Shown piece by piece: positions 3,608-5,187 of a stretch of 58,281 nucleotides of DNA. The DNA comes from an uncultured Eubacteriales bacterium (GTDB taxonomy: Bacteria; Acidobacteriota; Aminicenantia; Aminicenantales; Aminicenantaceae): NCBI GenBank assembly GCA_964611275.1, contig CAZSZS010000037.1:1-58281 (forward strand), written 5' to 3'. Below the pieces are notes generated by a model. That model was given only the letters and a program-made list of their open reading frames with translations, had not been told where the DNA came from and did not search any database. Position 1 is the stretch's first letter, and each line of letters starts with the position of its first letter. A program made the position numbers and the translations under genes.

Positions 3608-3680
3608 GCGCCCGTAGCTCAGTGGATAGAGCGGTGGACTTCGAATCCAAAGGTCGGGGGTTCAAATCCCTCCGGGCGCG
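3608..3680 (+). tRNA. tRNA-Arg, anticodon TCG (CCA not encoded)
   Basis: Cloverleaf folded by hand: acceptor GCGCCCG/CGGGCGC, D stem GCTC/GAGC, anticodon loop CT-TCG-AA, T arm GGGGG-TTCAAAT-CCCTC. The 27:43 pair is a G.A mismatch. Confidence 0.95.
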
Positions 3681-3755
3681 CTTGCTTTAAATATATGCTA
3701 ATAGGGGAGTTAGGGGGATTTTTGGGAAGATGTCTTTATATAGAAAATATTAGAA

Positions 3756-4379
3756 CTAGAGAAGCTGCTTTGAAATGTATCTTCTGTGAAAATTTATCAA
3801 AGGATCATAATTTAATTTATCGGCTTCCTGTAGAGCTTGAATATAAATCTTTCTTATTTTAGTAGCCAAAATGATTTCATTTTCCGGAAAATCAAGATAT
3901 GAGTTAAATTGTTCTTTGAGAAAAAGATTTACAATAAATCTTGCCCATCTTCCATTACCGTTATTAAAAGGGTGGATATACACAAGTCTGTGGTGTAGGC
4001 GTGCGGATATTTCGATCACTTCGATTTTTTGTTTGTTCCAATACTCAAAATCATCAATTAACTCTTTCAGCTTTAGTTCTATATGATATTTATCAACACC
4101 AATATTTTTATTTGTTTTCCTTTTTTTCCCTGCCCATTTCCACACTTTTCCAAACATTTCTTTATGTACTTTAAACAGATTGCTATATGTAAATTTAAAC
4201 TCTTTTTTTGACAAAAGATATTTTTTTTGAGCCTCTGTAATATTCTTGAACTCTGCATCATTTAATTCACTTCTAGTAATTATATATTTTGGTAATAGTC
4301 CATCTAAATCTTCTTTAGTTAATGGGGTAGCTCCTGATGGCAGGCCGCGATTTATTTTTTTGTCTGAGTCTGGTTCCAT
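3756..4379 (-). CDS. Fic/Fido-family protein (mobile mystery protein B type)
   Basis: Fic motif HPFNNGNGRWAR. N-terminal GATPLTKEDLDGLLPKYIITRSELN matches the recalled pattern of mobile mystery protein B. Confidence 0.9.
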   Translation of the reverse strand: MEPDSDKKINRGLPSGATPLTKEDLDGLLPKYIITRSELNDAEFKNITEAQKKYLLSKKEFKFTYSNLFKVHKEMFGKVWKWAGKKRKTNKNIGVDKYHIELKLKELIDDFEYWNKQKIEVIEISARLHHRLVYIHPFNNGNGRWARFIVNLFLKEQFNSYLDFPENEIILATKIRKIYIQALQEADKLNYDPLINFHRRYISKQLL

Positions 4380-4825
4380 AAACTATCTCTTTTTTTATCA
4401 AGAATTTCCTTTTTCAGGTTTTCAATTTGTGCCATGCTTTCATTTTCTGAGGGGGGTTGTACTTCAATAGCAGAACTTGCCCTATTAATCTTTACTATTT
4501 GTTTTGCTTTTTTGGTTGCTTTCTCATCTAAATATTTAATTATGTTCTTACGAGGGACAAGAGATATCTTTAATTCTGCATTTAATGCGTCTGCTATTTT
4601 ATAAAGAGTAGAGATCTTTGGCATGGCATCTCCACTTTCGATTTGCTGTATAGATCGAAGAGATCGATTGACTTTATTTGCTAATTGTTCTTGAGTCATT
4701 CCTAGTGTTTCTCGAAGGATCTTTATTTGATCTTTGAAGCCGGGATAGTTCAATAGCCATTCAGGTAATTTCTCAATTGATTTAAACTTTTTGCTAATTT
4801 GTTCCGTGAAAAAATATTTAGTCAT
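4352..4825 (-). CDS. XRE-family HTH protein (mobile mystery protein A type), putative antitoxin/autorepressor
   Basis: HTH segment LRETLGMTQEQLANKVNRSLRSIQQIESG..ISTLYKIADAL, followed by LVPRK. Overlaps the Fic gene by 28 bp. Confidence 0.88.
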   Translation of the reverse strand: MTKYFFTEQISKKFKSIEKLPEWLLNYPGFKDQIKILRETLGMTQEQLANKVNRSLRSIQQIESGDAMPKISTLYKIADALNAELKISLVPRKNIIKYLDEKATKKAKQIVKINRASSAIEVQPPSENESMAQIENLKKEILDKKRDSLWNQTQTKK

Positions 4826-4831
4826 ACCAAA

Positions 4832-4860
4832 ATTATACGAAATATAATTTCGTTTTTCAA
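4832..4860 (-). promoter_or_regulatory. Sigma70 promoter of the HTH-Fic operon, probably leaderless
   Basis: Minus strand TTGAAA(4860-4855)-N17-TATAAT(4837-4832), then 6 nt to the ATG at 4825. No Shine-Dalgarno sequence. Confidence 0.75.
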
Positions 4861-4919
4861 GTTATAAATACGAAATATAATTTCGTAAAAATTATGTTTT
4901 ATATGAAATAATATTTCAT
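4837..4919. promoter_or_regulatory. Three palindromic operators at 33-bp spacing
   Basis: ACGAAA-N5-TTTCGT at 4837-4853 and 4870-4886; ATGAAA-N5-TTTCAT at 4903-4919. Confidence 0.75.
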
Positions 4920-5035
4920 ATAATTTAATTATGTTATTTCAAAGAACAGTATATAAACTTATCTTCAAAAAATACTAACATCCGTTCTGGACCAAGTTCC
5001 GGGGAGCAGATAATTTTTATTATGTCACAGATTTT

Positions 5036-5071
5036 GCTTAATCTCGCTTAATTTGGCTTAATGGTGCTTAA
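5036..5071. repeat. Four GCTTAA hexamers at exact 10-bp period
   Basis: GCTTAA starts at 5036, 5046, 5056 and 5066, about 70 bp before the att duplicate. Confidence 0.85.
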
Positions 5072-5140
5072 AGGAAAATCCTCATTTTCTCGGGGAAAAC
5101 CGGGTTTTTCTCTGGTGCTGAAAATCATAAGGAATGGGAT

Positions 5141-5187
5141 TTCGAATCCAAAGGTCGGGGGTTCAAATCCTCCCGTGCGCGCTTGCT
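5141..5187 (+). repeat. attR-like duplicate of the tRNA-Arg 3' half
   Basis: ttcgaatccaaaggtcgggggttcaaatcctcccgtgcgcgcttgct; three substitutions relative to 3640-3686. Confidence 0.92.

Follow-up and report, generated by a model that had tools for sequence, protein, structure and literature searches.

How does an islet that encloses only 1450 nt come to lie in a transfer RNA gene between two attachment sites, with no integrase of its own, and can it still move? The question is raised by positions 3636-5187 of the window, by which we mean the whole stretch of DNA analysed, the 58,281 nt of contig CAZSZS010000037.1 in a metagenome-assembled genome (MAG; GCA_964611275.1) of an uncultured Aminicenantes-like lineage. 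Here the 3' part of a tRNA-Arg(TCG) gene is repeated downstream, and the two copies bracket a helix-turn-helix (HTH) gene and a Fic-domain gene. An earlier interpretation of these letters (the sequence-only reading) had left two possibilities side by side, a cassette mobilised in trans by a helper integrase and a decayed island. Our comparison supports decay, through an integrase-bearing island at the same tRNA in a relative, the loss of repeats from the arms and the lack of an integrase, and it disfavours mobilisation in trans. We conclude that 3636-5187 is probably the decayed, integrase-less remnant of an integrative element of tRNA-Arg, resembling a cis-mobilizable element (CIME), whose remaining cargo is a self-contained, autoregulated HTH-Fic cassette.

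The concepts on which this conclusion draws are already established: attachment (att) sites in anticodon loops, island decay, CIMEs, accretion and toxin-antitoxin persistence. Islands in tRNA genes were reportedly sorted into sublocation classes by Williams in 2002, crossover in the anticodon loop being among them. Such islands restore the tRNA gene that they split and leave a displaced fragment of it behind (PMC4383910). A CIME, such as those related to ICESt1 in Streptococcus thermophilus, keeps both att sites and has lost its genes for integration and transfer; the decay of integrated elements and their tandem accretion are likewise established (PMC5704250).

Results

The displaced tRNA part and what it encloses

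The islet is bounded by a direct repeat with a spacing of 1501 nt (Table 1), and we estimate the chance expectation of such a repeat within 2.2 kb to be far below 1e-10. The 47-nt repeat at 44/47 identity that had been described earlier was found again (3640-3686 / 5141-5187, mismatches at 5171, 5172 and 5176), and the longer block adds a difference at 5140 (C32>T). In the attR copy the G-C and G-U pairs of the T stem are swapped at 5171/5172, and G>T at 5176 breaks the pair C5:G68, just as had been pointed out for acceptor pair 5:68. The dyad GGA-YTTCGAA-TCC that had been singled out at the junctions is present, but since GGA-[C/T]TTCGAA-TCC is the anticodon stem-loop itself, its symmetry is a property of the tRNA and no separate feature of the junctions.

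The tRNA gene is the only full-length copy of tRNA-Arg(TCG) that a genome-wide search found in the source MAG, and Rfam finds no other RNA in the region. Across the order, partial copies of tRNA-Arg(TCG) that start at tRNA positions 24-32 are common; this gene is a busy integration hot spot, where integrase-less remnants are the rule and not the exception. The enclosed DNA (3687-5136) has about 30% GC, with a range of 25-33% versus 47-55% in the flanks, and its only open reading frames with family support are the HTH and Fic genes. Searches with Pfam PF00589 and with the integrase of a same-genus element (that of genome G002, below) found no integrase on the islet's contig and no cognate integrase in the source MAG. 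The description of about 1.45 kb of AT-rich DNA with two overlapping genes and no recombinase is thus borne out. With islands of the Islander type the islet shares a regenerated tRNA, a displaced 3' fragment present as a direct repeat, a foreign composition and a repeat that begins at the anticodon stem-loop; it differs in being only 1.45 kb and in having no internal integrase, which the definition requires.

Table 1. Features of the islet and its att sites, in window coordinates
Feature	Position	Strand	Remarks
tRNA-Arg(TCG), intact	3608..3681	+	ARAGORN; Rfam RF00005, 71.8 bits
attL core, upstream repeat copy, 51 nt	3636..3686	+	from G29 of the anticodon stem to 5 nt beyond the tRNA end
P' arm remnant, motif AATAGGGGAGTTAGGGGG	3687..3737	+	element-derived; stops before the ATGTCACA pair
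Fic-domain gene, 207 aa, mobile mystery protein B, motif HPFNNGNGRWAR	3756..4379	-	TIGR02613, Pfam Fic, PADLOC
XRE-type HTH gene, 157 aa	4352..4825	-	Pfam HTH_3 6.5e-13; 28-nt overlap with the Fic start
Sigma-70-like promoter of the HTH-Fic operon	4832..4860	-	-35 TTGAAA, 17-nt spacer, -10 TATAAT; 11/12 consensus
Three palindromic boxes [C/T]GAAA-N5-TTTC[G/A], putative operators	4835..4919		33-nt spacing
Spacer between cassette and P arm, unique, AT-rich, ~100 nt	4922..5020		among the loci fetched, resembles only copies of the source genome
P arm remnant, 116 nt	5021..5136	+	one ATGTCACA at 5022-5029; four GCTTAA in 10-nt phase, 5036-5071
Mosaic patch	5081..5195		ungapped comparison of L236 with the window: all 13 differences here; surrounding 1456 nt identical
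attR core, displaced tRNA 3' part	5137..5187	+	47/51 identical to 3636-3686

Arms shared with integrase-bearing elements

We compared the locus with that of same-genus MAGs, located via orthologues of the 787-aa gene to the left of the tRNA (G000 being the source MAG). The orthologue is followed by the same tRNA in G008, G005 and G002. In G002, beside the orthologous 787-aa gene, that tRNA holds a 9.3-kb element in the order tRNA, P' motif, integrase, about 8 kb of cargo, P arm and, 9.3 kb downstream, a copy of the tRNA 3' part. Its integrase is of the tyrosine type, 448 aa long and convergent, starts about 100 nt past the tRNA and matches Phage_integrase (2.3e-39), an N-terminal HTH_17 and phrog_1. 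A larger island with its own integrase at the same tRNA had been named beforehand as the sign of a deletion remnant, and it is what G002 carries.

The window has the att order tRNA/attL core, P' stub, cargo, P stub, attR core. The stretch that follows the tRNA (3682-3736, with motif AATAGGGGAGTTAGGGG) is 78% identical to the interval between tRNA and integrase in G002 and, over part of its length, 89% identical to G008. At the other end, 5021-5136 matches the P arm of the G002 element and that of an island of G004 (island A) at 91-92% identity, and P arm and repeat together (5021-5187) are 91% identical to the right end of the G002 element. These alignments show the stubs beside attL and attR to be homologous to the arms of integrase-bearing elements of the same genus.

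An integrase 88% identical to that of G002 is found in G005 (G005:C14; L089 4811-6338) at a tRNA-Arg(CCT), adjoined by the P' motif, which lies between tRNA and integrase, and by a ATGTCACA pair, so one element family uses two Arg tRNAs whose anticodon loops differ. The P' motif is absent from G003 and G006, in which the tRNA is directly followed by the flank that comes after attR in G002; because the tRNA runs straight into that flank, both are empty sites for the element family. Since the P' motif accompanies integrases at two tRNAs and is missing from the empty sites, it is element-derived, and we rejected native chromosome as the source of the 51 nt after the tRNA on the same grounds. The search of relatives for an empty site or a different cargo, proposed in the sequence-only reading, therefore yielded empty sites in G003 and G006 and an occupied one in G002, but no genome in which the tRNA is joined directly to the right flank of the window.

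In the integrase-bearing elements of G002 and G005:C14, each arm bears a tandem ATGTCACAAATATGTCACA, with the same orientation on both; on P' it lies about 70-85 nt past the tRNA, and on P about 115-125 nt short of the core. The tandem is also present on the P arm of island A of G004, whose integrase is absent from that assembly. The window keeps a single ATGTCACA, at 5022 on P, where the P-arm homology begins, and none on P', because homology ends at 3737, just short of their place; compared with both arms of the integrase-bearing relatives, 3/4 are missing. The four phased GCTTAA are intact and are conserved in G004, and the GCTTAA array of G002 has no adjacent open reading frame whose promoter would explain it. 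A 90% identical version of the GCTTAA block (5023-5074) occurs in G027, a member of a different family (L239, G027:C1 9204-9255), where the array adjoins tRNA-Arg(TCG) on the opposite arm and is inverted relative to the tRNA; the block is a conserved element of the arms.

One remnant in two species

The islet has a close counterpart in G004 (G004:C29), in the order P arm, att, P', Fic, HTH, HEAT-repeat gene. The Fic-HTH unit is 91% identical in nucleotides and 94% in protein, and its P'/Fic junction is the same as that of the window. To its left lie a full-length P arm and tRNA 3' copy of another island; to its right, some 240 nt of unrelated DNA stand in the place of P-attR. The 787-aa gene of G004 is on a contig that breaks off within the tRNA repeat. 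Judging by this order of parts, G004 is a tandem accretion of another island onto the same Fic-HTH remnant. Genome and metagenome scans for Fic gave this G004-type copy and otherwise the bare cassette, with no islet with att arms elsewhere, which leaves a single locus, in G000 and G004. That the locus and the left junction are the same in both argues for inheritance over recent movement. Within its spacer of about 240 nt, G004 has a dispersed repeat roughly 100 nt long (L035, G004:C29 2819-2919), which is found twice near the tRNA-Arg of G005 at about 80% identity (L024, G005:C1 1165-1255, 6707-6808).

Other genomes of the genus and order differ in what they hold at tRNA-Arg. After the tRNA, G008 has P', then a 35-aa integrase stub and an IS3-like fragment, and G005:C1 keeps no more than 40 nt of P'. 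In G019, att sites enclose 3.1 kb that include an integrase stub of 38 aa (L088, G019:C39 374-3591); in G027 they enclose 8 kb with an insertion-sequence fragment and no integrase. The element of G039 is 7.7 kb long and has genes for an integrase and a terminase-like protein, and G001 is occupied by an element with a different P arm. The 3.1-kb segment of G019, whose contig ends right after the repeat, encodes a 630-aa protein that by eye is homocysteine-methyltransferase/MTHFR-like and a 268-aa protein, both apparently metabolic.

To the right of the islet, synteny with G008 and G005 is regained only at about 9505, so that 3687-9505 is variable relative to those genomes. It contains the islet, two HEAT-repeat genes, an anti-sigma factor and an extracytoplasmic function (ECF) sigma factor, the part outside the islet forming a cluster (5222-9342) that is missing from the locus in G008 and G005 and lies beside the Fic-HTH unit in G004. 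The right flank of the islet has a genome-like GC content and is common to G004, G007 and G002. No att remnant was found at about 9505, where synteny with G008 and G005 resumes.

The HTH-Fic cassette

The Fic protein matches TIGR02613 at 184.8 bits (cutoff 124.4) over profile positions 1-185/186, Pfam Fic at 6.9e-16 and two PADLOC models, the candidate system PDC-S04 (6.7e-28) and SoFic (2.2e-12); no curated cutoff exists for these models, and PDC systems have candidate status only. The best NCBIfam match of the HTH protein, whose gene adjoins that of mobile mystery protein B, is TIGR02612, at 67.3 bits and below the cutoff of 122.6. Of the mobile mystery A/B pair recognised earlier, the B member stands and the A member is a best match only. 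The pair shares with TIGR02612/TIGR02613 pairs and with PDC-S04/SoFic its architecture and a patchy distribution, in addition to its B score and its PDC-S04 match, and differs from the former in the score of its HTH protein. In the literature that we found, mobile mystery proteins receive passing mentions only, with no published function, and no defence or toxin-antitoxin activity is reported for the A/B family.

Class I Fic toxin-antitoxin modules, such as VbhT/VbhA and FicT/FicA (PMC3667792, PMC5033356), offer the closest point of comparison. Their antitoxins have an inhibitory helix with (S/T)xxxE(G/N), and canonical AMPylating Fic proteins have HxFx(D/E)GNGRxxR (PMC3667792). We surveyed these motifs in 101 HTH-Fic pairs, of which one is that of the window (3756-4825) and 100 are homologues at loci L090-L223. 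The family motif of the Fic proteins is HxFxNGNGRxxR in 100/101, with Asn where canonical AMPylators carry D/E, and the window's HPFNNGNGRWAR departs from the canonical signature at that position. Near their C-terminus the HTH partners carry (S/T)MxLExQ, with Glu in 98/101 and Gln in 99/101, and an invariant Trp150; in the window the segment reads S117-S-A-I-E121-V (S117xxxE121), and the residue after Glu is neither G nor N. The Fic protein also has an invariant Glu43 of its own.

The likeness to class I modules is one of arrangement and of key residues: a small upstream partner overlaps the Fic gene, (S/T)xxxE is conserved in the partner family, and the Fic protein of the islet keeps the active-site His, the Phe, GNGR and both Arg. 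The differences lie in the partner, which is a 157-aa XRE-type HTH repressor in the islet and a peptide of about 60 aa in class I modules and in which Glu is followed by x-Q and not by G/N, and in the Asn that takes the place of D/E in Fic. The motif of the partner thus resembles the class I inhibitory helix in part only. We take the HTH protein for a putative autorepressor and antitoxin-like partner of Fic; mobile mystery A could conceivably be a hitherto unrecognised fusion in which an XRE repressor carries a Fic-inhibitory helix of the class I type.

The control region fits such a role. Relative to the HTH start, three palindromic boxes have their centres at -27, -60 and -93, and the promoter overlaps them; box positions are largely kept in five other copies (G004, L224, L227, L228, G024), changes in the half-sites being symmetric, and the promoter is conserved in homologous cassettes at other loci. 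As far as DNA motifs can tell, promoter and phased boxes are the signature of an autorepressed, toxin-antitoxin-like operon.

Other Aminicenantes-like MAGs and metagenome contigs have copies of the cassette with both genes and their upstream control region (3769-4921), with a nucleotide identity of 65-87% and in unrelated chromosomal neighbourhoods with no tRNA-Arg or integrase nearby. The HTH gene overlaps the Fic gene in every copy examined, and the copy of G015 is frameshifted. In one metagenome contig (L145, Ga0233409_10040257, 4-1063), a Fic gene of 70% identity has its end about 130 nt away from a tRNA-Ala(CGC), perhaps a second case in which the cassette is associated with a tRNA.

This distribution invites another history, in which the island had decayed to a bare attL-attR scar before an autonomous HTH-Fic cassette, able to move among chromosomal sites, arrived, so that arms and cassette would share the site by chance. 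The identical boundaries in many unrelated contexts speak for it, as does the lack of an integrase-bearing relative with the cassette, and some 30 and 100 nt of unrelated spacer separate the cassette from the arm stubs; beyond copies of the source genome, the spacer at 4922-5020 resembles none of the other loci fetched. The ends of the cassette, however, show no terminal repeats, no target-site duplication and no transposase, and regions next to tRNA genes are variable and gather cargo anyway. Such a history leaves the same present structure as one in which the cassette was the last cargo to stay; we regard it as unlikely.

A mosaic patch at attR and the integrity of the assembly

A conspecific contig from another sample (L236; JGI 3300031281, Ga0307420_1047368) matches the window at 100% identity over 4967-5080 and 5196-6537 and differs in a 115-nt patch, which takes in the core-proximal part of the P arm, the attR core and a single base past it. 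In this other haplotype attR and the tRNA copy agree throughout (51/51), and the P arm resembles the G002/G004 type. The substitutions in the downstream repeat copy had been taken to point to an old insertion or to a foreign allele; a patch of 13 substitutions, next to a haplotype whose attR matches the tRNA, comes closer to the foreign allele and does not support an old insertion. We therefore rejected these substitutions as a measure of insertion age, confined as they are to a patch between otherwise identical conspecific haplotypes. Because the patch reaches both sides of the anticodon loop, a single integrase crossover would be insufficient to produce it, and short-tract homologous recombination with another P-att sequence is the more likely origin.

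The same region is a weak spot of the assemblies. Two other assemblies of the population end at exactly 4943 (JGI, Logan) and three start at 4967, 4990 or 5049, so that 4944-4966 is spanned by the window contig only, and exact-protein look-ups (Fic, HEAT-repeat and 787-aa proteins) returned contigs that break near the islet and one variant haplotype only. The breaks at 4943-4990 point to a coverage drop or a graph branch in the AT-rich spacer that is consistent among assemblies. One could also see in them, and in the G004 tRNA contig that terminates within the repeat, the trace of a chimeric join or a collapsed repeat that created a false small islet from a larger island or from two strains. 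On their own side, however, the other contigs are 100% identical to the window, and only 23 nt are unshared. The linkage of Fic-HTH and the HEAT-repeat gene is credible because G004 shows the same neighbours independently, another contig (L231) joins Fic-HTH to the tRNA and the 787-aa gene, and the sequence differences between the two repeat copies argue against a collapse. An artefact is thus extremely improbable.

Discussion

A decayed remnant or a moving part

Could the islet be an active, non-autonomous mini-element, made up of att core, minimal arms and a selfish HTH-Fic module and moved in trans by G002-type integrases that the cell or the community encodes elsewhere, or in cis after accretion? 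Much of what such an element would need is in place: both cores are kept with about 50 and 116 nt of arms that are 78-92% identical to those of integrase-bearing relatives, the P arm keeps all four GCTTAA in an array whose high conservation extends across families, and the tandem of G004 is the structural precondition of mobilisation in cis (PMC5704250). The Fic and HTH genes are, moreover, less diverged between G000 and G004 than their flanks, and a recombination patch at attR separates conspecific strains. Against this, the islet occupies one chromosomal locus only, in two related species and with the same left junction; 3/4 ATGTCACA repeats are gone and the MAG has yielded no cognate integrase; the right-hand attR is lost in G004, and att arms accompany the cassette in none of the other genomes examined; the attR patch, finally, reaches beyond the stretch that would be exchanged by an integrase crossing over in the anticodon loop. 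We consider an active mini-element distinctly unlikely. Its boldest form, a working 'miniature island' whose HTH-Fic pair is a selfish addiction or defence module, the integrative counterpart of miniature non-autonomous transposable elements (MITEs), ferried among Aminicenantes by G002-type integrases and with the patch as a footprint of ongoing recombination, seems to us a long shot. The islet can most likely no longer excise on its own, and it is probably not efficiently excised in trans either.

Several observations weigh against a decayed remnant and should be set beside those that support it. The polymorphism of the attR patch means that recombination of some kind has occurred recently at the site. 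The sequence 5188-9505 is absent from the locus in G008 and G005, so attR may lie inside a larger, composite region of variable content, as one of its junctions; the right flank could be an older island or else ancestral DNA that other genomes have lost, and its variability leaves the interpretation of the islet unchanged. The ATGTCACA and GCTTAA repeats are putative sites of integrase or of a recombination directionality factor (RDF), proposed from their conservation. The helper integrase that the sequence-only reading had proposed to look for beside a tRNA-Arg att was not found in the genome, whose recombinases are two Xer-like proteins and one C-terminal integrase fragment at a contig edge. 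This fragment, 31 residues followed by a tRNA-Leu(CAA)-like 3' fragment (L246, G000:C160 1-320), is nonetheless a second, unassembled integrative element of the source MAG, and with about 90% completeness and 218 contigs the MAG could leave a helper integrase unassembled. Third-codon identity between G000 and G004 is 0.90 for Fic and 0.84 for HTH versus 0.77 for the HEAT-repeat gene, which could reflect a later exchange of the islet or merely AT-biased codon usage. Lastly, no integrase-bearing element with a Fic-HTH pair was found among the relatives, so the cassette may have come after the decay and not as the last of the original cargo. Taken with these points, decay of an integrative element is still the probable origin of the islet.

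A proposed history

The history that we favour would begin with a family of tyrosine-integrase elements that enter tRNA-Arg genes and share with them a block of identity from the anticodon stem-loop onward. Internal deletions would have taken the integrase, the other cargo and most of the putative arm-type integrase sites, and would have halted at the edges of the self-contained HTH-Fic cassette. Its persistence could be explained by its being autoregulated and toxin-antitoxin- or defence-like, as cells that lost it would be counter-selected. The HTH protein would repress its own promoter via the three phased palindromic operators, and its conserved C-terminal (S/T)xxxE helix may keep Fic inactive, as in class I pairs. 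Once free, Fic (HxFxNGNGRxxR) would act on a target in the cell, which it would modify through AMPylation or a similar transfer reaction. How Fic is inhibited and which reaction it catalyses are predictions from conserved motifs, as is the toxin-antitoxin-like or defence-like character of the cassette. With its intact tRNA, attL is still a target for new elements, as the tandem of G004 shows.

The islet matches the description of a CIME in several respects. It retains attL and attR, with a P' stub of 51 nt and a P stub of 116 nt, it has lost genes for integration and transfer, and a related element with an integrase occupies the same tRNA in G002. In G004 the structure of a tandem accretion is seen, from which movement in cis would be conceivable. 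It differs in that the parent elements show no conjugation or mobilisation genes, which makes them small genomic islands, in that its arms are partly deleted, and in that its host belongs to an uncultured Aminicenantes-like lineage.

Within one genus, one tRNA gene thus offers an empty site, a full element, a tandem, integrase stubs and an islet of arms plus cassette. That a toxin-antitoxin-like module would be the last survivor fits the view of addiction modules as resisting deletion. The islet is also a compact natural construct, in which the arm needs of tRNA-Arg integrases and the function of HTH-Fic pairs may be studied.

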